IMG/VR virus record: IMGVR_UViG_3300032315_001657
Span: 11,109 to 75,108 of that record
Direction: 5' to 3' (one strand)
Length of the DNA stretch: 64,000 nucleotides
Source: a virus
A model generated the notes under the pieces. The model did not search any database and was not told where the DNA came from. It saw nothing but the letters and a program-made list of their open reading frames with translations. This document shows positions 6,417-53,392 of the stretch, in pieces. The position numbers were made by a program, and so were the translations under genes. Numbering within the stretch: position 1 is the first letter of the stretch; every line of letters begins with the position of its first letter.

Positions 6417-6908
6417 ATGGGCCCAACCTCGATTGCACCTGATGAAATTTTAGATATTAAAAAACAATATTACTCTTGGAATCGTTTTCATGAACTTATT
6501 AATAGGGTTAAGAAACAAATTGATATTCCACCTAATTTAATTGTATCTATTGGTAAAGGGGGATCCATTCCCGGTGTTGTTTTAGCTGAAATGTTTGAGT
6601 GTAATAATATAAATTTAGGTTTAAAATCCTATAAGGGACACTCTCGGGGTAACATTCATGAGTATCAATCTATTGGCTGTTTTAATGGGTTTAGAGATGC
6701 TAATATTCTTATTGTTGATGATCTTGCCGATTCAGGTGAAACTTTTCTTTATGCGGTTAAAAAGTTTAAAGGTAATGGTTGTGAGAATATAAGAACAGCC
6801 TCAGTATTTTATAAGCCTTGTTCAAGGTTTAAGCCTGACTATTTTGCAGAAGAAGTGGATAGCAAGATCTGGATCGTGCTGCCTTGGGAGACTATGGAAG
6901 TTCAGTAA
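6417..6908 (+). CDS. Type I purine phosphoribosyltransferase (Gpt-like)
   Basis: SIGKGG, PRPP-binding ILIVDDLADSGET, WIVLPWE. Confidence 0.85.
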   Translation: MGPTSIAPDEILDIKKQYYSWNRFHELINRVKKQIDIPPNLIVSIGKGGSIPGVVLAEMFECNNINLGLKSYKGHSRGNIHEYQSIGCFNGFRDANILIVDDLADSGETFLYAVKKFKGNGCENIRTASVFYKPCSRFKPDYFAEEVDSKIWIVLPWETMEVQ

Positions 6909-16024: not shown

Positions 16025-16657
16025 TCACATATTAGCTAGCAGAGAACCATCTTCTTCATGAAAGAACTTACCGGAAGGTTTAATATACATAGGTATCTGT
16101 TCAATACGTAGATCTGGAGGACCTTCAAGTGTAATAACAGCAGGACAATCTTCTCTTGGAAAGAAAATACCTTGATTCTTTTCATACGTACCGACAACAG
16201 CTCTAAAAAGATTGTCAATTTCTTGTCGATAAATAGGATCTAAAGCTCGGCCTTTTTTAGGTACTATTGTTATTTCCTCTCTTAACGGTATATAAAATAT
16301 AATATCAAACATTTTTATGGCTTGAAAAGCAATATGCTTAGTATCCATAATAAACTCATCAGATACTTTGCCCTTTTCATTAAGCCAAAGGGAATAAACA
16401 ATGTTATCTATAACACAGCGATCAAATACTAAAAAGTCATCTCCTTTTGCAGTAGCATTTTGAGTATCATCTATAATTGCATTTAAAATAGCTTTTTGAG
16501 AATCAGCTGTACCCTCTTCGTTATTAGTTACCTTACCAGTCTTAATAAGTTTACGATAAGTCGACTTAACCTCTTTGTACATAGGCCATCTTTTAATAAA
16601 TTCTTTAATTAGTGTACTCTTTCCGTTACACTGTGTACCCATAAATGCAATTTTCAT
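16025..16657 (-). CDS. P-loop nucleotide kinase (AAA_28 / dNMP-kinase-like)
   Basis: GTQCNGKST and FDRCVID. Confidence 0.75.
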   Translation of the reverse strand: MKIAFMGTQCNGKSTLIKEFIKRWPMYKEVKSTYRKLIKTGKVTNNEEGTADSQKAILNAIIDDTQNATAKGDDFLVFDRCVIDNIVYSLWLNEKGKVSDEFIMDTKHIAFQAIKMFDIIFYIPLREEITIVPKKGRALDPIYRQEIDNLFRAVVGTYEKNQGIFFPREDCPAVITLEGPPDLRIEQIPMYIKPSGKFFHEEDGSLLANM

Positions 16658-16659
16658 AA

Positions 16660-17418
16660 TTATACCTTAAGGGCTTTATCCCAGATTACCAACTGTAATC
16701 TTGGAGAAAAGTTTACATGCATAGCTTTAGCATATTCTGCTACAGCAGTACTTTTTTCAACGTGCTCTTCTCGAGAACCACAGCAGGGCATAAACCAAAT
16801 ACGGAATAAAGGTACGTTAATACCTAAATCATCATAAACATACTTACGCCAAATTTCTTCAATATCTTTATCAGAATTAATAACAAATTTAAACCCTGAA
16901 CCATTTGTAACATGCCATTTCAACACTTCAGGTTTATAAGTTTTCTCCTCCGGATCTCCGTTTGAAATAAGCTTAGGAGAGGTAGTAAAGGTTGCTTTAA
17001 ACTCTTGCCGCCAACGAGGAGAGGGGGTTAAAGTAGCATTAGTTTCAAAGTCGATACGAGGTATAAAATGATACCTGTCTCTAAAAGCTTCAATAAACTT
17101 TAGCAATTGCTTTTCCTGAATAAAGGGCTCTCCACCTGTAAGTTTAAGAATAGCATTATGGCGAAGATGTTCAATATAGTTATTATTCTCCATTAACTCA
17201 AAGACCTCAGTAAAGGTCTTTTTATTCTTTACCGACCAAGATACAAATGAGTCACAACCATTAGGTGAATCCTCTGATGCAAAGCCAATACAAGTTAAAT
17301 TACACATAGACATCCGCATAAAAACAGATGGCTGACCAATATATTCCCCTTCACCTTCAATGGTATAAAATACCAAATCGTCAGATAGAAATAATGTTTC
17401 TTTATCGTTATCAATCAT
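16660..17418 (-). CDS. queE: 7-carboxy-7-deazaguanine synthase (radical SAM)
   Basis: FYTIEGEG, PSVFMR..CNLTC...CDS, LTGGEP, ETN, SPK, FSPRLQ; near queD. Confidence 0.9.
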   Translation of the reverse strand: MIDNDKETLFLSDDLVFYTIEGEGEYIGQPSVFMRMSMCNLTCIGFASEDSPNGCDSFVSWSVKNKKTFTEVFELMENNNYIEHLRHNAILKLTGGEPFIQEKQLLKFIEAFRDRYHFIPRIDFETNATLTPSPRWRQEFKATFTTSPKLISNGDPEEKTYKPEVLKWHVTNGSGFKFVINSDKDIEEIWRKYVYDDLGINVPLFRIWFMPCCGSREEHVEKSTAVAEYAKAMHVNFSPRLQLVIWDKALKV

Positions 17419-17421
17419 AAA

Positions 17422-17628
17422 TTAACCTCCAATAATAAATTTAAAAAGTAAAGAACAGATTACAATAGCAATCCATCCAATAGGATTAAACAATAATAGA
17501 TAAAGTAAGGCAAAAATCAAGACAGATACTAAAGATAAAAATTCCCAAAAACCTATTTTACGATCTTTAAGCCATACTTGTTCAAATTTAGCTGTAATTA
17601 CTTCAAGGTCTTTTTTCATAGATTGCAC
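17422..17628 (-). CDS. Small membrane protein
   Basis: Two hydrophobic segments. Confidence 0.5.
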   Translation of the reverse strand: MQSMKKDLEVITAKFEQVWLKDRKIGFWEFLSLVSVLIFALLYLLLFNPIGWIAIVICSLLFKFIIGG

Positions 17629-18049
17629 TATTTAGCTCATGTTCCCACACTTCAACTCTATTAAGCCAGCAACGACCTACAGACATATCTCTTATCATAG
17701 GATCAACAGTCTTAAAACACCATTCAGCCGTCTTTTCAATACCTACACCATCCATAACACGAAGCTGGCAACCTCCATTATCCGCTAATTGAATAAAACT
17801 AGGTAGCAACGGATCATCTTGAGCAATACAAAGAGTGTGATCAAATTGATCCTGTAATAACCTTTTAACGTCTTTTAAGCCTCCAAAATTTATAACCCAA
17901 TTCTTATCATCTAATCCCTGACATCCAAACCAAAACTTAGCTTTAAGCTGATATCCATGTACATATTTACAATGAGTACCTTCAGCTCTCCACTGCCTGA
18001 AGGCACAAGAGCCAAGTTCTATAATCTTAGTTGATTCAAATCTAACCAT
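17603..18049 (-). CDS. queD: 6-carboxytetrahydropterin synthase
   Basis: HCKYVHGY, NFGGLK, FDHT, VEVWEH. Confidence 0.9.
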   Translation of the reverse strand: MVRFESTKIIELGSCAFRQWRAEGTHCKYVHGYQLKAKFWFGCQGLDDKNWVINFGGLKDVKRLLQDQFDHTLCIAQDDPLLPSFIQLADNGGCQLRVMDGVGIEKTAEWCFKTVDPMIRDMSVGRCWLNRVEVWEHELNSAIYEKRP

Positions 18050-18365: not shown

Positions 18366-18980
18366 TTATTTCAACTTTTTATTAAACAAGTTATAGATAC
18401 CGTTATCAAATTTTCCGTAGAGGTCTACAATTATTTGTTTTCTTTCTGCCTCTGAAACATGTTTGTACATATCTCTAATTTGGGTAGCACTTGTTATATT
18501 TTTACCTAAAACTTTAAAAGGGAAAACAGGGGCAACAGTAATGTATCCCTTTTCCCCTAAAGGTAACATTTCGTTAGCATCTTGAAGTTTTTGAAAATAG
18601 CTTGGTGAACCGTCTTTTTTTGGTTTGTATGAAAATCTATCTATATCTTTTTCTGATACAGCATATATAAGTCTGTCTTTTAAGTCGTTATATTTTAATG
18701 TAATTTCTTTTGCTACATAAGGAGACACAACCTGTACAATTTTATCAGCTGGTACACCGGCCTTGACTAAAGCTAACTTGCGCTCTTGAAAGCTAAAAGG
18801 AGATTTTTCATCAACTTTATTACTTGTAGCTACATACACATCTGCCCCTGGGTACTGCTCTACAAGAGAATTATAGACCTGAGCATGCCCTCTGTGGGCT
18901 GGTTGAAAGCGGCCAGGGTAAATTACAACTAGCTTGCCATTTCTAGTTTGTTCTGTAAAAAACTGATTAAATGCTATCAT
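18366..18980 (-). CDS. Cytidylyltransferase-like (HxGH) nucleotidyltransferase
   Basis: YPGRFQPAHRGH, SPFSFQER, SATQIR. Confidence 0.85.
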   Translation of the reverse strand: MIAFNQFFTEQTRNGKLVVIYPGRFQPAHRGHAQVYNSLVEQYPGADVYVATSNKVDEKSPFSFQERKLALVKAGVPADKIVQVVSPYVAKEITLKYNDLKDRLIYAVSEKDIDRFSYKPKKDGSPSYFQKLQDANEMLPLGEKGYITVAPVFPFKVLGKNITSATQIRDMYKHVSEAERKQIIVDLYGKFDNGIYNLFNKKLK

Positions 18981-20230
18981 TTAAATTTTTCCTCCCTTGA
19001 GATAGCAAAATTAGCCCGAGAAAACTCCAATCGATCTACAAGCTTTACCATATTACCAGATCTATCTACAGCTACAAAGCCCTCTCCGGGAGTAACCTTT
19101 AATGTACCATCAGGCTGAGTTAAAAATTGTTTTGTCTTGATAGCAGTACTATATTTGTTAAAGAAAATCTTTTTTATGTCTGCTATTTTTTTGGTAAGAT
19201 TAAAAATATTAACAATAGACATTTTATTTGTATTAAAAAACTTTATAGCTTTATTTTTACCTTCAATTTTTTTTTGCTTACCTGCTTCAGATTTTAATTT
19301 TTCAATTTCTTTATCTACCCGGCCATTATACCACTCTATAAACCCGTTAAACGTTTCTTCTGGATTTTCAACAAATTTACCTTGACGTATAAGGGTATTA
19401 ATATAGGTATTTGCTAAAGTATAAAAATTATTAGGTAAACCGACCCAATCAGTTATACCCGCTATCTTCTGTATTGAATTCAGACCTTCAGATACTGCTG
19501 TTTTTTCATCATCAGTTAATGTAACAGTGCCAGACATGTCTTTAAACTTTGCATCGTCAAACCATACATCAGGGGATTGACTAAACTCAGAAACATTAAC
19601 GTCAGCAGATTTAGAAAGCTGTTGTAAGTTAGGTCCTGTGTAGCGAGTATGAAACACAACACCAATTTGGGCTGTTTGTATTTTTTTACCTAACTCAGAA
19701 TCTACCTCTACAGCGTATGTAATTGTATTAGGTTTGAAGGTTATTAATTTTTCTCCTTGAAACTCTATTTGCTGCAATGTTGCCTTATCAAACATGAAAT
19801 CACCTTGATAAACATTGCTTTTAATAACTTTTGGTAAATAAAGTAGTGCTAACCTCATCTTTTCAACTAAGCCTGGTGCTTGGCTGTAGTTTTGCTGAAT
19901 GTCTTGATTCGTGTAACATATCTTTGGTGTTTTGGCCGCAGCACTCTTTGTTGCAACAAAGAACTTGTTATTTTCAGGGTTATATCCACATATTATAGCA
20001 GGGGCACCGTCATATTTGACTGTTGTAAAAACACCAGAATCCGCATTACCGTTAAATGTCTCGGTTAAAGCCTTAATAAACTCTACAGCAATATCTAGAC
20101 CTGCTTTCTGTTGAGTTAAAATGTACTCTTCAAGATGGGTAAGATGCTTAATAATACCTTCTTGTTGCTCAATGACAAGATATTTACTAATACTATCTTT
20201 ATAAAAGCTATTGAAAGCTTGTTCAATCAT
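18977..20230 (-). CDS. Conserved T4-like phage protein with an ATP-dependent RNA-ligase-like fold (DUF6267-like)
   Basis: HLTHLEE, TVKYDGAP (KxDG), YQGDFMF, GEGFVA, VKLVDRLEFS. Confidence 0.65.
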   Translation of the reverse strand: MIEQAFNSFYKDSISKYLVIEQQEGIIKHLTHLEEYILTQQKAGLDIAVEFIKALTETFNGNADSGVFTTVKYDGAPAIICGYNPENNKFFVATKSAAAKTPKICYTNQDIQQNYSQAPGLVEKMRLALLYLPKVIKSNVYQGDFMFDKATLQQIEFQGEKLITFKPNTITYAVEVDSELGKKIQTAQIGVVFHTRYTGPNLQQLSKSADVNVSEFSQSPDVWFDDAKFKDMSGTVTLTDDEKTAVSEGLNSIQKIAGITDWVGLPNNFYTLANTYINTLIRQGKFVENPEETFNGFIEWYNGRVDKEIEKLKSEAGKQKKIEGKNKAIKFFNTNKMSIVNIFNLTKKIADIKKIFFNKYSTAIKTKQFLTQPDGTLKVTPGEGFVAVDRSGNMVKLVDRLEFSRANFAISREEKFK

Positions 20231-38198: not shown

Positions 38199-39995
38199 GT
38201 GCGTTTAGTAAATTTTAAATCTCTTACGATCAAGAACTTTCTCTCTGTTGGAGAAACACCAGTAACTATTAATTTCCAAACCGGGGTTAACGTTATTACA
38301 GGTATTAATTACGACAAAGAAGACTCTAAGAACGGTGTCGGTAAATCTACCATAGCAGATGCACTTTACTTTTCGTTGTTTGGAACAACTATTAGAGATT
38401 TACCTAAAGACTTAATAGTCAATTCTTTTACTAAGAAAAAATGTGAGGTAATTTTAGACTTCGATATTGAAAACGGTAACGGCTTATCTCAGTATCGTAT
38501 CATAAGGACTATTAATCCTACTAAATGTCATATGACAAAGAACGGGGAGGATATAACCCGTTCTACTATGGCTAAGACAAACGAGTTTATTCAAAGACTT
38601 GTTATGTCCAATGGTAAGATTTTTCAAAACTCTGTCATAATGACTATTAATACAACTGTACCTTTTATGGCACAGTCTAAGATCGATAAGAGAAAGTTTA
38701 TCGAGAGTATTCTTAGTCTTGAAGTCTTTTCAGATATGCTTTCAAAAGCTAGAGAAGAGCATAACATACTTAAAAAAGATTATGAAGTGTTATTTACTAA
38801 GGTAGAAGGTATTGAAAAAGGTTACAAATTTAATAAAGAGCAACTTGATGCTTTTGAAGAAACAAAAAAATTAAAGATCGAAACTTTAACAAAACGTATT
38901 GAAGAGAGTAAAGCTAAAATTGAAGATCTTAAAAAGAGTATTAAAGTTCTTCCTAATGATGTTATAGAAAAACTCGACATTAAACTTCAGCAATGCAATG
39001 AAGAACTACAAGAATCACAAAAACTTTATAAAATTGCCTATCAGGTTTTAGCTGATGTTAAAAGTAAAATTAGTCATATTGAAGATCAGTTAAAAGAAAT
39101 TGAAAAAGTTGGTGCTATTTGTACAACTTGTAAGAGAGCATACTCTGACGATGATCTCAAACATAAAGAATCTAATAAAAAAGAACTTAACAATAAATTA
39201 AAAGTTCTAACAAAAGAACTTAATACTGCTCAAAAGACTCTTGATGAAGTAAATGCCTTTCAGGTTAAAAAAGAAAAAGAAATAAAGGATATTCAAGATA
39301 ATAAAAATATTGTAAAAGATATCTTAAACAATAATAAAAATACTGAAACTAAGATCGGGCTTATTAACGAAAATATTCAAGAACTCTTAAAAGAAATTGA
39401 AGAGGTTAAAGGACAGACAAATGAAGCTTTAGAGAATGTTGTAAAAGAGCTCGAACAAAAGCTTAAAACTGGAAAAGTTGATTTAGAAAAATTAGATCAT
39501 GAATGTAATGTTCTCGAATGTGTTAAGTTTGTAGTATCTGAAGAGGGTGTTAAGTCATACATTGTTAAAAAGATCTTAGCTGTCTTAAACGGAAGAATGG
39601 CATACTACCTCGAGAAACTTCATGCTAACTGTTTGTGTCAATTCGATGAGTTCTTTGACGAACAGATTACAGATGAAAAAGCAGAACATAAATCCTATTT
39701 TAACTTCTCTGGCGGAGAGCGTAAGAGAATTGATTTAGCTTGTCTGTTCTCATTCTTAGATATTCGTAGAATGCAAGGAGATGTGCACTTCTCAACTATC
39801 TTCTATGATGAGCTTTTAGATTCTTCTTTAGATGATAAAGGGGTAGAACTAGTTTTAGACGTTCTCCGGGAAAGAGCTTTAAAGCATAACGAAAACTGTT
39901 ATATTATTACTCATCGAGGTACTACTATTACAGAGAAAATTGATAATACAATATTTCTGGAAAAACGTAACAATTTTACATATTTATTACCATAA
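38199..39995 (+). CDS. Recombination ATPase subunit (gp46, Rad50/SbcC-like)
   Basis: KNFLSVG, NGVGKST, coiled coil with CTTC hook, FSGGE, YDELLDSSLD, ITH. Confidence 0.93.
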   Translation: MRLVNFKSLTIKNFLSVGETPVTINFQTGVNVITGINYDKEDSKNGVGKSTIADALYFSLFGTTIRDLPKDLIVNSFTKKKCEVILDFDIENGNGLSQYRIIRTINPTKCHMTKNGEDITRSTMAKTNEFIQRLVMSNGKIFQNSVIMTINTTVPFMAQSKIDKRKFIESILSLEVFSDMLSKAREEHNILKKDYEVLFTKVEGIEKGYKFNKEQLDAFEETKKLKIETLTKRIEESKAKIEDLKKSIKVLPNDVIEKLDIKLQQCNEELQESQKLYKIAYQVLADVKSKISHIEDQLKEIEKVGAICTTCKRAYSDDDLKHKESNKKELNNKLKVLTKELNTAQKTLDEVNAFQVKKEKEIKDIQDNKNIVKDILNNNKNTETKIGLINENIQELLKEIEEVKGQTNEALENVVKELEQKLKTGKVDLEKLDHECNVLECVKFVVSEEGVKSYIVKKILAVLNGRMAYYLEKLHANCLCQFDEFFDEQITDEKAEHKSYFNFSGGERKRIDLACLFSFLDIRRMQGDVHFSTIFYDELLDSSLDDKGVELVLDVLRERALKHNENCYIITHRGTTITEKIDNTIFLEKRNNFTYLLP

Positions 39996-39999
39996 CCTT

Positions 40000-41259
40000 A
40001 TGTCTCAATTTGTAATTCAGCAATCCGGTCTATCCAATATTATGGGCGCACCCATTGGACTACCCCCTTTTATACCCTCTACCACTCAAGTACTTCATGC
40101 TAGACCTAATGGAGATTTACCACCACCTGAAATACCAGGGGAAGGTTTGTCAAGAGCTATAAATTACCTTGCTGATTATGGTGGATGTTCTTGGTACCGT
40201 TGCATGGCTCCAAACCTAATGCTTAATCTCTACCAAAAAGCAGTTCTTTTAGAACTAACTACAATGGTGCTTGATCCGAGATTTTATAATGGAGTGAAGG
40301 CAGTTAAAATTCAGCGTCAGGCAACACCCATTCAAAGAGACTTTGTTAAGATGCTTAAAGAGATTTCTCGTCAAATGCCTGATGGAGGATTCAAACTTAT
40401 CTATGAAATTGACGATATTGTTTTTAGAGAAGATATTCCTGACTTTAATAGAAACAAAGATGCTTTTGTTGCAGATGAAATTCGTAACTCGATCTTAGAG
40501 ATTCTTGATATGTGTGATGAAGTCACAGTAACTTGTGAGTTCATGAAGGATTATTTTGACGAAAAAATGGGAATTAAAAAATCAACCGTGATACCTAACT
40601 ACCTTCTTAAATGGTGGTTTGACCGGTATTACAATCTTGGAGAATTGGTTAAAAATTTCGAAAAAAATAAAAAGAAACCTGTTGTATCTATTTTTGCTTC
40701 AGGCACTCACGTTGATGTTACAAACAGAACTGGACAGAAGGACGACTTTGAAATGGTAGTACCTGCTATTATTAAGACGAGAAAAGACTTTAGGTGGAAG
40801 TTCTACGGAAGTTACCCACTGCCCTTAAAACCTTTTATTGATCGAGGTGAGATGGAGTTTCATCAGTGGGCTCCATTGCCCGAGTTTCCAGCTACTATGG
40901 CTGAATCTGGTACTCAATTAACTTTTGCAGCTCTTCAGGACAACAACTTTAACCGTGCTAAAAGTAATATTAAGTTGCTTGAAGCCGCCGCACTAGGTAT
41001 TCCTTGTGTGTGCCCAGATATGTGTACATACAAGGATGCCTTCTTAAAATATTCTAATGCTAACGAGTTTATTGATTGTATTAAAACTGCTACTAAGAAT
41101 CAGTCTGTTTATGCTGATCTTTGTAAAAAGTCTCGCGCATATGCCGATAACTTCTGGTTAGAAGACGAAAAGAATCTCATGAAGCATCATGAGGCATATT
41201 TTACCCCGTTTGGTTCCCCTGATCGTAAGTATTTGCTTGAGACTAACCCAAAACCATAA
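40000..41259 (+). CDS. GT-B fold glycosyltransferase
   Basis: GCSWYR, YEIDD, FNRAKSNIKLLEAAALGIP. Confidence 0.75.
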   Translation: MSQFVIQQSGLSNIMGAPIGLPPFIPSTTQVLHARPNGDLPPPEIPGEGLSRAINYLADYGGCSWYRCMAPNLMLNLYQKAVLLELTTMVLDPRFYNGVKAVKIQRQATPIQRDFVKMLKEISRQMPDGGFKLIYEIDDIVFREDIPDFNRNKDAFVADEIRNSILEILDMCDEVTVTCEFMKDYFDEKMGIKKSTVIPNYLLKWWFDRYYNLGELVKNFEKNKKKPVVSIFASGTHVDVTNRTGQKDDFEMVVPAIIKTRKDFRWKFYGSYPLPLKPFIDRGEMEFHQWAPLPEFPATMAESGTQLTFAALQDNNFNRAKSNIKLLEAAALGIPCVCPDMCTYKDAFLKYSNANEFIDCIKTATKNQSVYADLCKKSRAYADNFWLEDEKNLMKHHEAYFTPFGSPDRKYLLETNPKP

Positions 41260-41273
41260 TACAATAGGTCTTA

Positions 41274-43820
41274 GTGTATAGGAACGCATCATACAACCCT
41301 CGAGAAGGAACTGTCTTCTTACGGACATGGACTGAAGATGGAGATAGAATCGATACCGATGTCCCCTTCACTCCCTATCTCTTTACAGAGCATAAGGACT
41401 CTAAAGACGCTACATCTATCTTCAAGACACCTCTTAAGAAGCATTATTTCAAAAATACCTTTGAACGTTCTAAGTTCGTTCAAGAAACTAAGAATCCGAG
41501 ACTATTTGGTAATCTATCTGTAGACCAGCAATTCTTAGTTGATCAGTTTAAGGAAGATGTACATAAACCTGAATTTAGTCAATTCCCTCTTAAAGTATTC
41601 TTTATTGATATTGAGACCTACTCTCCAGGTGCCTTCCCTATACCGAAGTACGCTAAAGACCCAGTTAATCTTATAACAGTACTAGACACACTTAGCGGTA
41701 AAATACATACTTGGGGTCTAAGACAGGACTATAAACCTAAGCTTGACAATGTCACATATTATTGTTGTAAGACAGAAGGAGAGCTATTTGAGAGGTTTGT
41801 TAATTTCTGGAAAAAAGACCCTCCTGATATTTTAACAGGTTGGAATACTGAGCAGTTTGACATTCCCTATATTATTAACCGTGCTAAGAACTTACTTGGA
41901 GAAGACTTTATTAAACAGCTCTCTCCAGTAGGTCAGGTACATTATAGAGAGAACTTCGCTAAGTTTGGTAAAGAGATGGGTAGGTGGTATATTTCTGGTG
42001 TTAGCTGTTTAGATTACATGGAAATTTACAAGACATATTCTAAGGGTGATAGAGAGTCTTTCTCTCTTAACTATATTTGTGAATACGAGCTTGGTGAAGG
42101 TAAACTTGCTATTAATGCTACAAACCTTTCTTCCCTATCTGAAACAGACTGGGAAAACTTTGTAGATTATAATATTCAAGACGTTGATCTACTTCGTAAG
42201 TTAGAAGAGAAGCTAAACTACTTAAAAATTATTCGTTTGTTGTCTTATAAGGGGTGTACTAACTTCGAAAGAGCATTAGGAAAGGTATCTATTGTAACTG
42301 GCGCTATGACTCTCCAGGCACAAAAGCAGGGATATGTTATACCTACCTTTAAAAACGAAACTACTAGGGAATCTTTAGAAGGGGGTTATGTAAGAGAGCC
42401 TGAAAGAGGTCTAAAGGAAGCTATTGTATCCTTTGACGTTAACTCTCTATACCCTAATACCATTATTACTCTTAATATTGGATCTGAGACTAAGCTTGGT
42501 AAAATTGTTACTGGAGACCCTGAGTACGATAAAGAGGTTGAAATTAAACTCGAGTCTGGTGGTATGTTTAAAGTAACTACTGCTAAACTGAAGAAGTTCT
42601 TGACTGATGAAAACGTGGCTCTATCAAAGGCTGGTGTTTTATATTCTCAAAAGTTTAAAGGGGTTTGTCCGAATCTAATTAATAGTATTTACGATGAGCG
42701 AGTTTATGCTCGTAATGAAATGCTTAAACTAAAAAAGACAAAGCAGAAGGATAAAGATACCACTAGTAAGATTCAGTACTTTGATACCCTTCAATACACG
42801 TTAAAGATTCTTCTCAACTCCATCTACGGTACGTTTGCTAATAAGCACTCGGCCTTTATGGATATTGATAACGCTTCATCTATTACCCTAACGGGTCAAG
42901 CAGTTGCTAAAGCGGGCGGAGCTATTATTAATGCTTGGGCTAAAGATAAGTTTGGAGTTACTGAGTCTCTTATCTTAGCAGGAGATACTGACTCTCTATA
43001 TACAACAATTCAACCTATTCTCAATAAACTTAAACTACCACTTGTTAAGGACGGCAATATTACAACCGAAGTCCATAAGATCGTAGATGCGATGGAAAAG
43101 CATCTCAATACTGAGATTATTAACTGGGCTAAGGCTGATCTTAATTCTGCTGATCCTCGCTTTGTTTTTAAACGAGAAGCTATTGCTGATGTAGGTTCGT
43201 TCTTAATGAAGAAGCGTTATATTCTTCATATTTTGGATGAAGAAGGGGTTCCTACTAATAAGTTTAAATATGTAGGCGTTGAACTGGCTCGTTCAACAAC
43301 CCCTAAGGAAGTTAAGGCCTTGATTAAGAAAACCATTGATACAGCGTTCTTAACCAAAGATGTTAAAAAGACTAACGAAGTCTTTCGAGAAGCTTACGAT
43401 CACTTTAAAACTCTTGATATCTCTGAAGCGGCCTTTCGTAAAGCTGCTAAAGAGCTTGAGAAGTATTCTGCAGATGCCTCTTTACATAAATTTAATAAAG
43501 GCACACCCTGCCATGTTAAAGCTGCTTTGGCTTACAACTTTCTTCTCGAGAAAATGAATATACAGAAAAGATATGAGAAGATTACTTCCGGACAAAAAAT
43601 TAAGTTCTTCTATGCAATGAAAAACCCTTATGGTTTAGATGCCGTAGGGTTTAGTAGTGAGTATCCGAAGGAGTTTCACGAGATTAAGATTGACTATGAC
43701 AAGATGTTTGGTAAGATTGTTGTGCCACCTATTGAAGCAGTTTATGATGCAATTGGATGGAGGATACCTCAGATTGGTAAAGAGGTTCAAACAGATTTAT
43801 TTGATTTATTTGGAGACTAA
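41274..43820 (+). CDS. Family B DNA polymerase (gp43)
   Basis: Exo DIET, GWN..FDIPY, YNIQD; pol SFDVNSLYP, KILLNSIYG, GDTDS. Confidence 0.97.
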   Translation: MYRNASYNPREGTVFLRTWTEDGDRIDTDVPFTPYLFTEHKDSKDATSIFKTPLKKHYFKNTFERSKFVQETKNPRLFGNLSVDQQFLVDQFKEDVHKPEFSQFPLKVFFIDIETYSPGAFPIPKYAKDPVNLITVLDTLSGKIHTWGLRQDYKPKLDNVTYYCCKTEGELFERFVNFWKKDPPDILTGWNTEQFDIPYIINRAKNLLGEDFIKQLSPVGQVHYRENFAKFGKEMGRWYISGVSCLDYMEIYKTYSKGDRESFSLNYICEYELGEGKLAINATNLSSLSETDWENFVDYNIQDVDLLRKLEEKLNYLKIIRLLSYKGCTNFERALGKVSIVTGAMTLQAQKQGYVIPTFKNETTRESLEGGYVREPERGLKEAIVSFDVNSLYPNTIITLNIGSETKLGKIVTGDPEYDKEVEIKLESGGMFKVTTAKLKKFLTDENVALSKAGVLYSQKFKGVCPNLINSIYDERVYARNEMLKLKKTKQKDKDTTSKIQYFDTLQYTLKILLNSIYGTFANKHSAFMDIDNASSITLTGQAVAKAGGAIINAWAKDKFGVTESLILAGDTDSLYTTIQPILNKLKLPLVKDGNITTEVHKIVDAMEKHLNTEIINWAKADLNSADPRFVFKREAIADVGSFLMKKRYILHILDEEGVPTNKFKYVGVELARSTTPKEVKALIKKTIDTAFLTKDVKKTNEVFREAYDHFKTLDISEAAFRKAAKELEKYSADASLHKFNKGTPCHVKAALAYNFLLEKMNIQKRYEKITSGQKIKFFYAMKNPYGLDAVGFSSEYPKEFHEIKIDYDKMFGKIVVPPIEAVYDAIGWRIPQIGKEVQTDLFDLFGD

Positions 43821-43835
43821 TTTATACTTTTAACC

Positions 43836-44666
43836 ATGCTTATTTCACATGAAACGCCTGTCTCGTTGTTGCCTTATTCCTGGGGATACAATGATTATGA
43901 TTACTGCTTAGTACATTTGTTACCCGAGAATCAAAAGTACAAAGATTTCTACTTTAAGTCTGTAGAGTATGGACGTAGAGTTCTACTTGATAATTCTATC
44001 TTTGAATTAGGTACATCCTTTGACCCTGAGCAATTTGCTTACTGGGTTAAAGAGCTTAAACCCTTTGAGTATGTTATACCTGATGTCTTAGAAGATACTG
44101 AAGGTACTTGTGTATCTATGGATAACTTCCTATCGAAGTATTCTGATCTCCCTGGTCGTAAGATTGGGGTGGTGCAGGGTAAAACTTATCAAGAACTTAT
44201 CGATTGCTATGATTATATTGCACCAAAGGTAGACAAAGTAGCTATCTCGTTTGATTATTCTTATTATCTTGAGAATTGTGATTGGTCGCAAATTAATGTA
44301 CCTGGCTTTGTTAAGGGACAAGAAGAAAACAAATGGCTCAAATATGCCGTAGGAAGAGTTCAACTACTGGATAATCTTTATGATGATGATGTACTTGATG
44401 TAAATAAACCTCACCATTTACTTGGTGCCTCTCTACCTTGGGAATTTGCTCTTTATTCTGAAAACTTCTTATCTGAGTATATTGAAACAATTGATACATC
44501 AAACCCGATTGTAGCAGGTATTTTAGGAAAGAAATATGAACCTGAGTTTGGTTTATCGGAAAAGTGGTCAGTAAAGCTTGTTGACTTTATTGATGCTGAA
44601 TTAACTGAGCAGCAAATTACTAATTCGTTTTGGAACATTACTCAATTTAAAAAGCTATGTCGATAA
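43836..44666 (+). CDS. TGT-fold 7-deazaguanine transglycosylase-like protein (DpdA-like)
   Basis: LLDNSIFE, IPDV, GVVQG, HHLLG, IDTSNP parallel TGT motifs (DSG, VQG, HLLG, D); next to queF. Confidence 0.7.
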   Translation: MLISHETPVSLLPYSWGYNDYDYCLVHLLPENQKYKDFYFKSVEYGRRVLLDNSIFELGTSFDPEQFAYWVKELKPFEYVIPDVLEDTEGTCVSMDNFLSKYSDLPGRKIGVVQGKTYQELIDCYDYIAPKVDKVAISFDYSYYLENCDWSQINVPGFVKGQEENKWLKYAVGRVQLLDNLYDDDVLDVNKPHHLLGASLPWEFALYSENFLSEYIETIDTSNPIVAGILGKKYEPEFGLSEKWSVKLVDFIDAELTEQQITNSFWNITQFKKLCR

Positions 44667-45205
44667 AAAAGCCCTGGGTTACTTTATTTTCTCAGACAGG
44701 TTCCGAAATTTACAAGATATCTAAAAAACTTGAACGAGTTCCTGATATTATTGTAACTAATAAACCAAAAGATAAAATTCTTGAAATTAACCCTAACCTA
44801 TCTGAAGAGTATCTAGATAGGTTTGTATGGTTACCTAAAAAACCAACTGTAGAAGATTACAAACATGCTATTCCAGAAAGAGCTTTAGTGACCCTTCACG
44901 GATGGTTAAGAATTATACCGCCTGAAGTATGTGGGCTGTTTGAGATTTATAATTTACACCCAGCGCCTATACATCTTGAAGGTTATGAAAAATACAAAGG
45001 AAAAGATCCTCAAGTCAGAATCTTCGAAGATAAAGCAAAGTATTCTGGAAACGTAATTCATGAATGTATCCCGGAATTAGATGCCGGAAAAATATTAGCT
45101 AAAAATCAGTTTGATGTATCTGGCTTTGATTTAGATATGGTGTTTAAATTAACTCATGCAAAAGCTTCTGAACTTTGGAGTAGCTTTTTAAAGGATAGAG
45201 TTTAA
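44657..45205 (+). CDS. PurN-like formyltransferase (candidate preQ1 formyltransferase, DpdN-like)
   Basis: FSQTGSE, LHGWLRII, YNLHPA, HECIPELDAGKI align with PurN motifs. Confidence 0.75.
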   Translation: MSIKKPWVTLFSQTGSEIYKISKKLERVPDIIVTNKPKDKILEINPNLSEEYLDRFVWLPKKPTVEDYKHAIPERALVTLHGWLRIIPPEVCGLFEIYNLHPAPIHLEGYEKYKGKDPQVRIFEDKAKYSGNVIHECIPELDAGKILAKNQFDVSGFDLDMVFKLTHAKASELWSSFLKDRV

Positions 45206-45217
45206 TATTAAGAAGTC

Positions 45218-45763
45218 ATGAGAGTTTCATTCACAGGTGCTCAGAGTACTGGTAAGACTACTTTACTCAACAAGTGTAAAGAAGTATACAAAGACTATAA
45301 ATTTGTTGATGAGGTAACACGTTATGTTCGTAAGACGTATGATGTTAAGATTAATGAGATTGGTGGAACTGAAACTCAACTGTATATTTTAGCAGAACAT
45401 ATTAAGAATCATTTAAAGCCAGATGAAAATTTGATACTTGATCGTTGTATATTAGATGGCTATGTTTATACAAAATATCAGGTAGAGAATAGAAAAGTTT
45501 CAGAACAAGTCTTACAGGCTTTTAATGGAGTATTTGCTGTTTTAATTGATAAGTTGGATTATATTTTTTATACTGATCCATCTGATGTAAAATTAGTTGA
45601 TGATGGTGAACGTTCAGTGGATTATAATTTTAGATGCGATATAATTGATATATTTGAAGATCTTATTTCGTATAAGATGTCTCCGAAGAATAGAGAGAAA
45701 GTAGTTCGTCTCAGCGGTACTGTAGAAGAAAGAATGAAAACTATAGAAAAATATTTAAAATAA
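45218..45763 (+). CDS. P-loop nucleotide kinase (AAA_28 / dNMP-kinase-like)
   Basis: GAQSTGKTT, LDRCILD, DDGER, GTVEER. Confidence 0.75.
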   Translation: MRVSFTGAQSTGKTTLLNKCKEVYKDYKFVDEVTRYVRKTYDVKINEIGGTETQLYILAEHIKNHLKPDENLILDRCILDGYVYTKYQVENRKVSEQVLQAFNGVFAVLIDKLDYIFYTDPSDVKLVDDGERSVDYNFRCDIIDIFEDLISYKMSPKNREKVVRLSGTVEERMKTIEKYLK

Positions 45764-46707
45764 TGAATACAAACCTAAATGATATTGCCTCTAAGACCTT
45801 AGGGTCTTCAGCCTCATACGCCATCTATACAGACCGTTATGATGCTTCACTTCTTAACCCAATGCCTCGAAAGCTAGCTCGCGAAGGATGGGGTATTAAA
45901 GGAGATGAATTTGTAGGCTGGGATACATGGCACTGTCATGAAGCAACCTTTCTTCTTGATAATGGTGCACCAGTTGCTGGAACATTAAAGTATGTTTACT
46001 CTTCTGATTCAAAGTATATGGTAGAATCTAAGTCTGCTAAACTATATCTTAATACTTTTGATATGTGTAAGATGGGCCAAACTATAGATACAGCAATTCA
46101 AAATTACGAACTACAAGTTAAAGCAGATTTAGAAAAAGTTTTAGAAACAGAAGTATCTGTTAAATTCTTTAAGTCGGGTGAAGACTCCCAAGGCATCTTC
46201 CCTATGTCAGGGTATATTGACCTTCAAGGGTTCTTAGATAAGAGTTTAGAAGATTTAGAAATTACAGACTACAGTGCTGAACGTAATCATTTAGAGTTTG
46301 AAAAAGTAAATTTTGCAGGTATTGGTTATAGTGCAAAAGATAATAAAAAGATTTATGTTAATAAGTTCTTTACAAATGCTTTAAGATCTCGCTGCAGACA
46401 CACTAAACAAAAAGATACGGGTACAGCTTTTATCTCTGTTAATACTCTCGATTGCACACTTATTCCGTCGTCTCTATTTAAACAGATTGTATCCTTAAGA
46501 GAGATTAATGAATTCCATGAGTTCTGTGCTGAAAAACTTTATACAGAAATTATGAAATACCCTGAGGTTGAGTCCTGTTGTGTAACGTTACTTTACGCAC
46601 GTAGAGGCTCTCTTGATATTAATCCTTGCAGGGCAACTACTCTTAATATGCTACCACCAGTACTTATCAATCCGAAATACTATACTAATAAGGCAATGGG
46701 ACAGTAG
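45763..46707 (+). CDS. queF: NADPH-dependent preQ0 reductase, bimodular type
   Basis: VESKSAKLYLN, RSRCRHTKQKDTG (catalytic Cys/Asp), FHEFCAE, YARRGSLDINP. Confidence 0.92.
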   Translation: MNTNLNDIASKTLGSSASYAIYTDRYDASLLNPMPRKLAREGWGIKGDEFVGWDTWHCHEATFLLDNGAPVAGTLKYVYSSDSKYMVESKSAKLYLNTFDMCKMGQTIDTAIQNYELQVKADLEKVLETEVSVKFFKSGEDSQGIFPMSGYIDLQGFLDKSLEDLEITDYSAERNHLEFEKVNFAGIGYSAKDNKKIYVNKFFTNALRSRCRHTKQKDTGTAFISVNTLDCTLIPSSLFKQIVSLREINEFHEFCAEKLYTEIMKYPEVESCCVTLLYARRGSLDINPCRATTLNMLPPVLINPKYYTNKAMGQ

Positions 46708-46739: not shown

Positions 46740-47114
46740 ATGAGTAATACAGAAAACAAAATTGTGGTGTTCTTCGATTCCGTCGGTAGAACAATCCTTG
46801 GTGAAAGACTAGAAGACAAGACAACAAACGAGGTTCTCACTATTAAGAACCCTGCTGTTGTTCATATTATGCCTAACCAACAAAGCGGGCAATTGCAGCT
46901 TCAAATTCTTCCTTTATTCTTTAAAGAGTTTTTAGCTGATAAAGATACTGGTACGGTTTGGAATTACAGCCGAGCTAATATTACTGAAGCTGTGGATGTA
47001 ACATTTGATTTCAAACTAGAAGCACAATACCGTCAGATCTTTGCAGCAGGTCCAGCACCAGCTCCTCAACAACCACAAGGCTCACCTGAAGTAATAAAGT
47101 TGTTTGATGATTGA
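46740..47114 (+). CDS. Hypothetical protein (Sm-like fold possible)
   Basis: GRTILGE...LTIKNPAVV pattern. Confidence 0.55.
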   Translation: MSNTENKIVVFFDSVGRTILGERLEDKTTNEVLTIKNPAVVHIMPNQQSGQLQLQILPLFFKEFLADKDTGTVWNYSRANITEAVDVTFDFKLEAQYRQIFAAGPAPAPQQPQGSPEVIKLFDD

Positions 47115-50633: not shown

Positions 50634-51554
50634 ATGACATTCACAAAAAATATGTTTAACGAAATTAAGGCCTCCTTGTCTGATAAAAAAGATAGCTCAT
50701 ATAAGGATATCATGAAATTTGAACCCGGGAAGACTTACGTTGTTCGTCTTGTCCCTAACGTAACTGATCCTAAGACTACAATGTATCATTACTATCACCA
50801 TTCCTGGAATAGTCTTTGTACTGGTCAGTTCGTTACTACCCTTTGTCCTTCTACTTACGGAGAGCAATGCCCGATCGATCAATACGTTCTTAAGACCTAC
50901 AATACCGGGTCTGCTGAAGATAAAGAAAAAATTAAACCGATCACACGTAAAGAGAATTGGTTTGTTAATGCCTATATTATCTCTGATCCTACTAATGCTG
51001 AAAACGAAGGTAAAGTTAAGGCTATTCGCTACGGTAAAGAGTTAGCTAAGGTTATCAACGCAGCTATTGACGGAGATGATGCTGATGAGTTTGGTGTTAA
51101 GATCTTTGATGTTGCTGAAGGCTGTTCCCTCAAGATTAAATGCGAGTCTCGTACCGGCATGGGTGGCTCTAGAGCCTTTGTTACATACTCGGCTTCAAAG
51201 TTTACTTCGCCCTCTAAGCTTGAAGGTGTAGATGCTAAGAAGATTGATGGCATCTATGAGTCTGTTCTTGAGCTTGATAAGTTCAATAAGCCGAAAACCT
51301 ATGCTGAACTTCAGCGTATGCTTGATCAGCACTTCTTTTGTATTCAGGATGTTACCTCTGTGGAAGAAGATGATGAACCCGTCTCTAAACCTACCCCTTC
51401 AAAGAAGGATGAAGCATTAAACTCCATCTTTGCAGGTATTAAAGAGGCTACTTCAACTATTGAGCCATCTGTTTCTAAAGTCGAAGTATCTGAAGAAAAG
51501 CCGGCTGTTGATGATACTGATGCTAAACTCAAAGAACTTCTCGCAAGTCTTTAA
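50634..51554 (+). CDS. Single-stranded DNA-binding protein (gp32)
   Basis: VRLVP, H...CP.T.GE.CPI, NEGKV...YGK, acidic tail. Confidence 0.9.
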   Translation: MTFTKNMFNEIKASLSDKKDSSYKDIMKFEPGKTYVVRLVPNVTDPKTTMYHYYHHSWNSLCTGQFVTTLCPSTYGEQCPIDQYVLKTYNTGSAEDKEKIKPITRKENWFVNAYIISDPTNAENEGKVKAIRYGKELAKVINAAIDGDDADEFGVKIFDVAEGCSLKIKCESRTGMGGSRAFVTYSASKFTSPSKLEGVDAKKIDGIYESVLELDKFNKPKTYAELQRMLDQHFFCIQDVTSVEEDDEPVSKPTPSKKDEALNSIFAGIKEATSTIEPSVSKVEVSEEKPAVDDTDAKLKELLASL

Positions 51555-51557
51555 TTT

Positions 51558-52223
51558 ATGTTAAGAAGTAAAAAGAAACTCCAATACGCTAATCATAACA
51601 TTCTTCATTCACCTGAAGAAGTTGAAGGGCTTATTAATAATGCTGCAAAGGCTTATGAAGCTTATCTTGATGCTTTAGGCTTTGATTGGCGTAACGATCC
51701 GAATAGTGCTGATACACCTCGACGGGTTGCTAAGGCTTTTGTTACTGATTTAGCTATGGGGTGTTATTCTGCACCCCCTAAAGTAACCGCCTTCGATAAC
51801 GTGGATGGTTATGATGGTATGGTTTGTCAGAACAATATCAAAGTTGTTTCAATGTGCTCTCACCATCATGCACCTTTTATGGGTGTAGCTCATGTAGCTT
51901 ATTTACCCGCTAAGAATGGTAAAGTAATTGGACTATCAAAGCTTAATCGTATTGTAGATTGGTTTTCAAGAAGGCCTCAAGTTCAAGAAAACTTAACTAT
52001 GCAGGTTCATGAGTACATTGATCAAGTTTGCGAGAAGAATAAAGGAGTAGCTATATTAATTGAAGCTAATCATACTTGTTGTTCTAACCGTGGGATTAAG
52101 CATGATTCAACTATGAGAACTGCTAGAATGTCTGGTTCCTTTTTAGATGAAAAAGATAATTCAAGGGCTGAGTTTTACAAATTTGTGGAGTTTGCCCAAA
52201 ATAATAAAGGACATATTTCATAA
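51558..52223 (+). CDS. folE: GTP cyclohydrolase I
   Basis: DTPRRVAK, SMCSHHHAPF, IGLSKLNR, RRPQVQE, HTCCSNRG. Confidence 0.95.
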   Translation: MLRSKKKLQYANHNILHSPEEVEGLINNAAKAYEAYLDALGFDWRNDPNSADTPRRVAKAFVTDLAMGCYSAPPKVTAFDNVDGYDGMVCQNNIKVVSMCSHHHAPFMGVAHVAYLPAKNGKVIGLSKLNRIVDWFSRRPQVQENLTMQVHEYIDQVCEKNKGVAILIEANHTCCSNRGIKHDSTMRTARMSGSFLDEKDNSRAEFYKFVEFAQNNKGHIS

Positions 52224-52224
52224 A

Positions 52225-52662
52225 ATGAGTACAATTGAAGAACAACTTGCAACAGCTATTGTAGCTAAGATGGCAGGAGTTGAACTACAAAAAGTAGACG
52301 AACACACCATAACCCAGTCTTCTACTGGTCCAGCTAGAAAGTTAGACCCTAAGTCATTTCTACCAGGTATGCAGCAGCATCAACAGAGGCAACAAGATGC
52401 AATTGTTGCTGCCGCTAACCGAGAGGCTGAAATGGCATACCCTTTGCCAGTTGATTATGGAAATCAGTCCCAGCCCGTACTTCAAACGTCTCCAGGTGCA
52501 CCGCCAGTTTTAGCACAACCTCAAGCTGATCCTAATCAACTCACCTTTGATTTCTTAGATGAAGCTACTACTAAAAAATCTTTAAAACAGCTTGATTTAA
52601 TTGTCGATTACCTGTATTCTATTAATAACAAATTAGATAAGGTACTCTCAAAACGTGACTAA
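52225..52662 (+). CDS. Hypothetical protein
   Basis: Q/P-rich; DPNQLTFDF motif. Confidence 0.6.
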   Translation: MSTIEEQLATAIVAKMAGVELQKVDEHTITQSSTGPARKLDPKSFLPGMQQHQQRQQDAIVAAANREAEMAYPLPVDYGNQSQPVLQTSPGAPPVLAQPQADPNQLTFDFLDEATTKKSLKQLDLIVDYLYSINNKLDKVLSKRD

Positions 52663-53392
52663 CATTCTGTCTCTCAATAAAGAATCTTTTGTTCAGAAGT
52701 TTCTTTCACCTATTAGTAAACTAGCTGATAACGTTTCCATCACTATTGATGATAACGAGGTATTTACTACTTGCGCCTCTCAGGATGGCTCAGTGGTACT
52801 CTTAGCTAGTTACAAAACCGATACAGCTGTTAGAGGTATACCCCGGATAAACCTTCCTGATGTTAAAAAGTTTGTCCGTCTTCTTGATTGCGTTGAAGAG
52901 AGTGACATAGCATTGACTATTGAAGATAATCATCTCAAATATACTACACCATCTTTTAAGTTTAATTACTACCTTCTAGAAGATAGCTACATGCAGAGGT
53001 GCCCTGTTAATCCAGAGAAGATTAAAAAGCTAAAATACGATACTGCTTTTATTCTACCTAACTCAAAATTTAATGAAGTATTAAAAGGCAGCTCTATAGC
53101 TACAGACTCAGATAAGTTATACTTTTATACGAAAGATGGTAAAGTTTATTGTGAGCTTAACGATCTTGAGAGACAGAATATTAATAATATTACATACCTT
53201 GTAACAGACAAATATGTAGGAGAGGATATTAAAAATACTCTACCTCTTAATTTAGAGAATATTCGCTTACTTGCTGGTACTAAATGCAATGAATTTACCG
53301 TAAAGGTTAATAACGAGTTAAAAGTAACACTTTTTCAAATTGAAGAAAAAGATATTGATATAAAATTTATTATATCTGCGCTTGTAAAATAA
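52655..53392 (+). CDS. Sliding clamp (gp45/PCNA-like)
   Basis: 245 aa, two-domain alternating beta/alpha pattern, located in the replication module. Confidence 0.7.
   Translation: MTNILSLNKESFVQKFLSPISKLADNVSITIDDNEVFTTCASQDGSVVLLASYKTDTAVRGIPRINLPDVKKFVRLLDCVEESDIALTIEDNHLKYTTPSFKFNYYLLEDSYMQRCPVNPEKIKKLKYDTAFILPNSKFNEVLKGSSIATDSDKLYFYTKDGKVYCELNDLERQNINNITYLVTDKYVGEDIKNTLPLNLENIRLLAGTKCNEFTVKVNNELKVTLFQIEEKDIDIKFIISALVK

Follow-up and report, generated by a model that had tools for sequence, protein, structure and literature searches.

The cultured phages whose modification genes come closest to those described here carry a transglycosylase of the DpdA3 subfamily, which was defined by the proteins CGPG_00065 of Cellulophaga phage phiST, gp056 of Campylobacter phage CP220 and gp65 of Flavobacterium phage immuto_2-6A (PMC10516641). 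In these three analysed DpdA3 phages the replacement of G is complete, versus 0.1-30% for other DpdAs (PMC10516641); the virion DNA of immuto_2-6A contains 345,000 formylated dPreQ1 (fdPreQ1) per 10^6 nt and gives no dG peak, all G being replaced (PMC10516641, NAR 2023). On its own in E. coli, DpdA3 left the DNA unmodified, and its authors concede a possible need for further enzymes (PMC10516641). Views of the route to such complete replacement have shifted, in line with a preliminary description of the present locus, made from its sequence alone, which supposed it unsettled: for Campylobacter phages a route through modified dGTP was proposed first and later set aside for a post-replicative one, and PMC10516641 assigns post-replicative exchange to DpdA3 without considering a kinase. 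In the literature searched, DpdA3 and fdPreQ1 were found only in that paper, and no later paper on the mechanism. In this study I analyse a 64,000-nt stretch of viral DNA (the window; positions 11,109 to 75,108 of IMG/VR record IMGVR_UViG_3300032315_001657) in which a DpdA3 gene is followed by genes for a formyltransferase, a kinase and QueF, and I propose that the kinase could be a clue to the level at which the base is exchanged, perhaps on free nucleotides before replication.

The source is a T4-like myovirus contig of 75 kb, about 35% complete and with a G+C content of about 34%. Directly downstream of a T4 gp43-like family-B DNA polymerase gene (PolB, 41274-43820; PF00136, PF03104 and phrog_262, 3.7e-200) follow, all on the plus strand, the genes for a DpdA3-type transglycosylase of 276 aa (43836-44666; phrog_19058, 7e-49, with the TIM barrel of tRNA-guanine transglycosylase, TGT), DpdN, a PurN-like formyltransferase of 182 aa (44657-45205; PF00551), Kin1, a P-loop nucleoside/nucleotide kinase of 181 aa (45218-45763; AAA_28, phrog_2107), and a bimodular QueF of 314 aa, which reduces preQ0 to preQ1 (45763-46707; PF14819 plus PF14489, TIGR03138). 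All five were found where the preliminary description had placed them. The gaps between them are 15, -10, 12 and -1 nt, the start of DpdN overlapping the stop of DpdA3 by 10 nt, and no terminator-like site lies between any of these genes on the plus strand. Because the order DpdA3-DpdN-kinase-QueF is the same as in gp65-69 of immuto_2-6A (with protein identities of 44.5%, 42%, 33% and 39%, respectively), the cassette can be assigned with high confidence, by its predicted genes, to the formyl-preQ1 type of 7-deazaguanine DNA modification. The earlier proposal that formyl-preQ1 stands in for G is supported by this shared order, full substitution having been measured in immuto_2-6A. Since a cassette of this type has already been published, what is new is the deep, uncultured T4-like lineage that carries such a set, its PolB being at most 33% identical to any cultured-phage polymerase; it joins a handful of phages in which formyl-preQ1 is predicted to take the place of G throughout the genome. 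A blastn search with the cassette against phage records gave no match.

To discern how constant the composition of such cassettes is, I annotated about 100 DpdA3 loci from IMG/VR (47-97% identity), together with the three cultured systems, by BLAST with the proteins of the window and of immuto. Counts were made on the 86 loci in which DpdA3 is followed by 1.4 kb of sequence or more, and lineages were obtained by collapsing DpdA3 at 85% identity. In 84 of these, the strand that bears DpdA3 also has an AAA_28 kinase gene no more than 2.3 kb 3' of it, often with overlapping starts and stops. Of the partners of DpdA3 the kinase is the most constant, ahead of QueF and DpdN: at the level of lineages (n = 37) it is present in 34, QueF in 31 and DpdN in 24. 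In the three lineages counted as kinase-less, the contig ends 210 nt past DpdA3, the block DpdN-kinase-QueF lies about 6 kb downstream, or the phage is phiST. Three types of cassette occur, namely DpdA3-DpdN-kinase-QueF (54 loci), DpdA3-kinase-QueF (26 loci) and DpdA3-kinase alone (4 loci, CP220 and a sister T4-like group among them). The DpdA3-kinase pair is kept in four different backbones: with PolB ahead of it, with FolE ahead of it, with baseplate genes on one side and capsid genes on the other, and in the Campylobacter phages (CP220). Conversely, a tblastn search with Kin1 against 50,697 phage records matched 21 of them, all Campylobacter firehammerviruses or immuto phages, i.e. carriers of DpdA3; no DpdA1 or DpdA2 phage was matched.

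phiST has no AAA_28 kinase. Directly 5' of its remote DpdA3 lies CGPG_00066 (L103:6472-6951), a P-loop kinase-like gene of the AAA_18 family whose product shares 35% identity with the P-loop portion (the C-terminal half) of CP220 gp055 (L002:5868-6899), an HD-P-loop fusion that is likewise encoded directly 5' of DpdA3. CGPG_00066 was dismissed as not shared with other phages, and the paper makes no mention of any kinase (PMC10516641). MazG-like pyrophosphatases are found near DpdA3 in both immuto and phiST.

Some further features of these loci may be recorded here. In the sister T4-like lineage L030-L032 the order is PolB-DpdA3-kinase, without DpdN and QueF and with FolE still after gp32; these phages presumably make a different 7-deazaguanine, of the dADG, dCDG or dDG type. 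Close relatives of the window (L003, L009, L010, L020, L024 and L025) have insertions of about 0.6-0.9 kb at the PolB/DpdA3 or the DpdA3/DpdN junction, which may be mobile homing-endonuclease genes. Immuto-like loci have a conserved open reading frame (ORF) of 144-150 aa directly 5' of DpdA3 (L052:7570-8004, L055:5843-6277 and L060:8717-9169) whose ID...D.K pattern would fit a PD-(D/E)xK nuclease, and at the same place L073 (1945-2445) has an ORF with a weak NERD-domain match. Such nuclease-like proteins might degrade unmodified DNA.

What, then, could the kinase phosphorylate? The AlphaFold2 (AF2) model of Kin1, which has a mean predicted local distance difference test score (pLDDT) of 91.4, was compared with known structures by VIA. 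The highest scores are for the ribosylnicotinamide kinase (RNK) domains of NadR (Z 18.4 with a root mean square deviation, rmsd, of 2.4 over 166 aligned residues, and Z 17.9), followed by human deoxyguanosine kinase (16.6), the Drosophila deoxynucleoside kinase Dm-dNK (16.2), Mycoplasma deoxyadenosine kinase (15.9) and dTMP kinases (about 15.5). Kin1 alone retrieved nothing useful from the PDB with phmmer; the profile of its family reached the Giardia deoxynucleoside kinase (3e-6), Aquifex dTMP kinase (5e-6) and, in the LID region, NadR (1e-4). Invariant in the family are the P-loop GK13T, R35, Q54, the DR motif D75-R76, Y84 and, in the LID, R132. From fold and motifs Kin1 is predicted to phosphorylate a nucleoside or a nucleoside monophosphate, and these features fix no single acceptor. 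A paralogue, Kin2 (210 aa, 16025-16657, minus strand; AAA_28, phrog_2107), has 28% identity to Kin1 and the same invariant residues. Its gene lies 2 nt 3' of that for QueE, in agreement with the earlier observation of a second kinase beside queD and queE, and its role is uncertain. CP220 also has two such paralogues, gp057 beside DpdA3 and gp006 beside a dUTPase gene. The suggestion that a kinase in each of the two que clusters points to nucleotide-level modification gains support for Kin1 from its linkage to DpdA3, while the nearest structures include NadR RNK domains and dTMP kinases, specificities which that suggestion itself had listed as speaking against it.

The DpdA3 of the window was placed in its subfamily by similarity to the defining proteins: tblastn gave 44.5% identity to immuto gp65 (1e-53), 40% to CP220 gp056 (7e-43) and 24% to phiST CGPG_00065 (2e-6), at coverages of 73-99%. 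The 276-aa protein has no Pfam or NCBIfam match. Its AF2 model (pLDDT 89.6) is a TGT-type barrel, with Z. mobilis TGT found by Foldseek (E 8e-10) and, in VIA, archaeosine TGT (ArcTGT; Z 17.4, rmsd 2.9, 229 aligned residues), the DNA preQ0 insertase DpdA 7ui4 (Z 17.0, rmsd 3.2, 231 of 413 residues aligned) and bacterial TGT (Z 15.8) ahead of the next unrelated barrels (at most 14.8). In 16 diverse members D52 (LLDNS), D83 (PDV), Q114-G115 and D220 (IDTSNP) are invariant. The bacterial DpdA binds duplex DNA via a positive crescent made of two insertions, Ins1 and Ins8 (the latter of 128 residues, or 30% of the protein), and it needs the ATPase DpdB plus ATP (PMC10164549). In DpdA3 about 36 residues, at the position of Ins8, separate the strand of the putative nucleophile (D220) from the last barrel helix, and a Cys/His cluster is missing. 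The protein of the window is also strikingly acidic (isoelectric point, pI, 4.55; net charge -19), as is the family in general (median pI 5.4, with 83% of 245 members below pI 6). A role of this protein in tRNA modification was considered and discarded, as the tRNA-binding insertions of TGT are missing and the phages with orthologues have fully modified DNA.

Natural fusions of DpdA3 with DpdN (P0160 and P0172, 447 aa) and with QueF (P0270, 568 aa; P0271, 531 aa) indicate that these three proteins work closely together, and suggest preQ1 as the incoming base. Other long forms of DpdA3 carry a GIY-YIG/NUMOD3 homing endonuclease (P0124), a DUF3310 domain (P0205) or extensions of no recognised kind (P0131, P0137 and P0260).

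DpdN matches PF00551 with 31 bits (cut-off 26.1) and is 42% identical to immuto gp67. Its profile aligns over the whole length, from residue 7, with structures of PurN, the glycinamide ribonucleotide (GAR) formyltransferase (E 1.6e-13). N99, H101 and D142, invariant in 12 members, align with the NxHPS...D motif that holds the catalytic Asn-His-Asp of PurN, and the invariant loop SQTGSE falls on the SGxGSN loop of PurN, which presumably binds the 5'-phosphate of GAR. In a dPreQ1 5'-monophosphate the primary amine would be at nearly the same distance from the (deoxy)ribose 5-phosphate as it is in GAR, and this resemblance could be why a PurN was recruited as DpdN. QueF has its motif E(S/L)K(S/A)hK(L/Y)(Y/F/W) in the form ESKSAKLY at residue 88 and, in RSRCRHTKQKD, Cys211 and Asp218 of the catalytic region; with 160 bits against TIGR03138, below the cut-off of 293, it is a divergent member.

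The reading that I favour, and to which I would give an even chance of being correct, is that the base is exchanged on a free deoxynucleoside or deoxynucleotide, with incorporation by the polymerase afterwards. By homology, the 7-deazaguanine base would be made by FolE (GTP cyclohydrolase I, the first step of the synthesis; 51558-52223, plus strand; PF01227, 2e-48), QueD (CPH4 synthase; 17603-18049, minus strand; PF01242, phrog_2389) and QueE (radical-SAM CDG synthase; 16660-17418, minus strand; phrog_2076, 1.9e-40, Fer4_12), with QueC either unseen in the contig fragment or supplied by the host, and QueF would convert preQ0 into preQ1. DpdA3, the presumed base-exchange enzyme, would act on dGuo or dGMP plus preQ1, yielding the dPreQ1 nucleoside or nucleotide and guanine, and not on finished duplex DNA. 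DpdN, which by homology would formylate the aminomethyl group, could do so at the level of the 5'-monophosphate, in a GAR-like manner; Kin1, perhaps together with Kin2 and the nucleoside diphosphate kinase (NDK) of the host, would raise the product to the dNTP, and the adjacent phage polymerase would incorporate it. A 6-oxopurine phosphoribosyltransferase-like (PRTase-like) gene (6417-6908, plus strand; PF00156, 1.1e-14, and xanthine/HGPRT NCBIfam models), whose product is 29% identical to immuto gp60 and has homologues in several other DpdA3 loci, may convert the guanine set free by the exchange back to GMP and GTP, from which the base is made. In immuto and phiST the MazG-like enzymes, and in CP220 the HD enzyme, would supply dGMP or dGuo and deplete dGTP. 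A variant in which the PRTase joins the base to phosphoribosyl pyrophosphate (PRPP) to give a ribonucleotide, which then passes through ribonucleotide reductase, is disfavoured, the PRTase gene being unlinked to DpdA3 and absent from most loci.

Exchange on free nucleotides is supported by the near-invariant partnership of DpdA3 with a kinase whose fold and invariant residues point to a small nucleoside or nucleotide acceptor, by the acidity of DpdA3 and its lack of the Ins8/Ins1 DNA-binding surface of bacterial DpdA, and by the retention in DpdN of the SGxGSN-type loop, the presumed phosphate-binding loop of PurN. The P-loop kinase-like gene beside the DpdA3 of phiST, the MazG-like genes near DpdA3, the complete replacement in all three analysed phages, the inactivity of DpdA3 alone in E. 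coli and the modified-dGTP route once put forward for the Campylobacter phages also count in its favour. Additionally, cells infected with CP220 were reported to contain the ADG nucleoside in their cytoplasm (PMC10516641), and 7-substituted 7-deaza-dGTPs are reported to be polymerase substrates. The kinase argument of the preliminary description is stronger now, with linkage, phyletic pattern and fold, than it could be from sequence alone, the route itself being no more than plausible. Less can be made of the coupling to the polymerase that had been proposed alongside: DpdA3 has PolB as its neighbour here, PolA nearby in immuto and the Pol III alpha gene alongside in phiST, and the neighbourhood is weak support because any replication-module gene would sit so. 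Taken further, all 7-deazaguanine genomes with complete replacement (fdPreQ1, dPreQ1, dADG and dDG) might be made pre-replicatively, with DpdA3 as the first TGT enzyme to act on a free (deoxy)nucleoside or nucleotide; I advance this wider claim only tentatively, considering it slightly less probable than its opposite.

Several observations weigh against exchange on free nucleotides. The characterised enzymes of the TGT superfamily act on tRNA, DNA or a protein conjugate (Cap10), and none is known to act on a mononucleotide. A profile hidden Markov model (HMM) of DpdA3, run against PDB sequences, did not reach TGT or DpdA, and although D52, D83 and D220 stand at strand ends as in TGT, their mapping onto the catalytic aspartates of TGT (general acid/base, base recognition and nucleophile) is by motif analogy. 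An acidic pI and a missing insertion may be compatible with DNA binding by another mode or via a partner. No fusion of DpdA3 with the kinase was found among the 150 best representatives or the longer proteins, and the top structural match of Kin1 is a nicotinamide-riboside kinase domain. The contig itself (about 35% complete) has no MazG, MazG-like, PRA-PH or HD match, nor do four relatives have a MazG or HD match, an absence that is uninformative in records that are 35-53% complete. QueC, noted earlier as missing from the window, was not found in the entire 75-kb contig either, nor in four related contigs (about 50% complete), so that the supply of preQ1 would rest on unseen genes or on the host; a QueC match is present in a fifth, immuto-like record.

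Finally, the paper that defined DpdA3 argues for insertion after replication (PMC10516641). According to this published view, ordinary G-containing DNA is made first and DpdA3 then flips out every G and swaps it for preQ1 or formyl-preQ1 in the polymer, in which case the P-loop protein could be an ATP-using helper analogous to DpdB, or an indirect supplier of nucleotides. I consider this the main rival, although less likely than exchange on free nucleotides. The fold of DpdA3, close to that of the DNA preQ0 insertase, is what such an enzyme should have, and all tested DpdAs insert into DNA, the bacterial one with the help of DpdB and ATP (PMC10516641, PMC10164549); moreover, no dGTPase was found in this lineage, as far as its records (35-53% complete) extend. 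However, DpdA3 lacks the surface with which bacterial DpdA holds the duplex, and its partner has the fold of a nucleoside or nucleotide kinase with conserved acceptor-site motifs, and not that of a ParB-like DNA-binding ATPase. Post-replicative exchange also leaves the MazG and HD enzymes beside DpdA3 in three cultured lineages without an obvious role, and it sits uneasily with the inactivity of DpdA3 alone on DNA in E. coli and with a replacement of 100% in every sequence context, unlike the 0.1-30% of other DpdAs (PMC10516641).

Alternatively, the kinases may have nothing to do with the modification, being NadR-type RNKs that serve NAD salvage together with a nicotinamide mononucleotide adenylyltransferase-like (NMNAT-like) protein, or dTMP or dNMP kinases for the bulk dNTP supply, and would owe their place near the que genes to descent and not to function. 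An NMNAT-like nucleotidyltransferase gene (18366-18980, minus strand; PF01467 and weak NCBIfam matches to NMN adenylyltransferase), whose membership in the 7-deazaguanine pathway is doubtful, does lie three genes from Kin2, and the two might form a split NadR-like pair with a role in NAD metabolism. The best structural matches of Kin1 and the LID motif VDDGxRS, shared with NadR, fit this explanation, as do the PHROG and GenBank labels 'thymidylate kinase' or 'NadR' and the position of the second CP220 paralogue, which is next to a dUTPase gene and not to que genes. Kin1, however, has no NMNAT neighbour, its homologues occur in no phage record that lacks DpdA3, many T4-like phages included, its adjacency to DpdA3 survives changes of DpdN, QueF and backbone, and in phiST the corresponding place is taken by a P-loop gene that is not an orthologue; I regard this explanation as improbable. 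Least probable is a recycling role, in which the base is exchanged in DNA and the kinase would restore the phosphates of modified deoxynucleosides or nucleotides set free when DNA is repaired or degraded, sparing the phage the cost of making the base anew: the kinase fold and the salvage logic of the PRTase-like gene in several DpdA3 phages would suit it, but a salvage kinase is not expected to be the most conserved partner of DpdA3, above QueF and DpdN, and the polymerase must still use the modified dNTP, which leaves the pre-replicative route open anyway.

If exchange on free nucleotides is correct, it would be new chemistry for the TGT fold and would overturn the published post-replicative assignment; it would explain the failure of DpdA3 in heterologous tests, and 7-substituted 7-deaza-dNTPs, useful as reagents, would become accessible by enzymatic synthesis. 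The comparative data amount to a short list of enzymes and substrates that can be assayed in two cultured systems, immuto_2-6A and CP220.

The surroundings of the cassette are those of a T4-like phage: besides PolB the window encodes UvsX, a DnaB-like helicase, gp32, a gp46-like protein, terminase, and tail sheath and tube proteins. The que genes are spread over 35 kb. FolE had been described as lying between gp32 and gp45, and only the former side was confirmed: gp32 (50634-51554, plus strand) directly precedes FolE, a neighbourhood kept in relatives, whereas the ORF taken for gp45 (52655-53392, plus strand, GTG start, 3' of FolE) is matched by neither Pfam nor PHROG, terminase and tail genes being the next that can be recognised. 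Directly 5' of PolB lies a glycosyltransferase-like gene (39940-41259, plus strand; phrog_7162). Between QueF (or the kinase) and UvsX, an ORF for an acidic protein of 124 aa (46740-47114, plus strand) is conserved in 13 T4-like lineages; the idea that it is a pyrophosphatase was dropped, since it has no Pfam, PHROG, NCBIfam or PDB-profile match. A DUF6267 protein (18977-20230, minus strand) is encoded in the same gene run as Kin2, QueE, QueD and the NMNAT-like protein.

Compared with known systems, the locus is most like that of immuto_2-6A, where the order is DpdA3, a small ORF, the PurN-like formyltransferase, a 'thymidylate kinase' and QueF. The same four genes occur in the same order, at 33-45% identity, and both phages have FolE, QueD, QueE and the purine PRTase-like gene. 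They differ in backbone, which has a PolA there and a T4-like PolB, gp32 and UvsX here; in the que genes, which are clustered there and scattered here; in the MazG-like protein and QueC, neither of which is seen here in the available 35% or so of the genome; and in the second kinase paralogue of the window, beside QueE. CP220 and the firehammerviruses, which make dADG, share a DpdA3 (40%) followed by a kinase of the same family (34%), with two paralogues per genome, and complete dG replacement, which was measured there (Crippen et al. 2019, as reported in PMC10516641) and is predicted from genes alone for the window. Without QueF and DpdN, however, their end product is the amide, and the HD-P-loop fusion stands directly 5' of the CP220 DpdA3. 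Cellulophaga phage phiST, with dDG and a measured complete replacement (PMC10516641), has a DpdA3 in the broad sense, FolE, QueD, QueE, a nearby polymerase and a P-loop kinase-like gene adjoining DpdA3; its DpdA3 is only 24% identical, its kinase is of the AAA_18 family, and MazG and the decarboxylase DpdL take the place of QueF and DpdN.

With the bacterial DpdA/DpdB/DpdC system and the phage DpdA1 and DpdA2, which insert preQ0 into DNA after replication (PMC10164549), the likeness is that of the TGT-type barrel (Z 17.0), and DpdA3 and bacterial DpdA probably share an Asp-based double-displacement chemistry, whereas DpdA3 is about 140 residues shorter and has a kinase as its partner rather than a DpdB-like protein.

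In its proposed logic the locus resembles two pathways that modify other bases. T4 makes its hydroxymethyl-dC with the dCTPase gp56, the dCMP hydroxymethylase gp42 and the dNMP kinase gp1, and the Z base of S-2L and PhiVC8 is made with PurZ, DatZ and MazZ. Common to these and to the route proposed here would be modification at the level of the monophosphate, a dedicated kinase and a phage polymerase, and the MazG and HD enzymes of immuto, phiST and CP220 would fill the role of gp56 or of DatZ and MazZ. The differences are that the modifying enzyme would be a TGT-fold exchanger, unprecedented on mononucleotides, and that no hydrolase of the canonical dNTP was found in the records of this lineage (35-53% complete). 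The trait that the DpdA3 loci do display, in 84 of the 86 counted and in 34 of the 37 lineages, is the dedicated kinase linked to the modifying enzyme.

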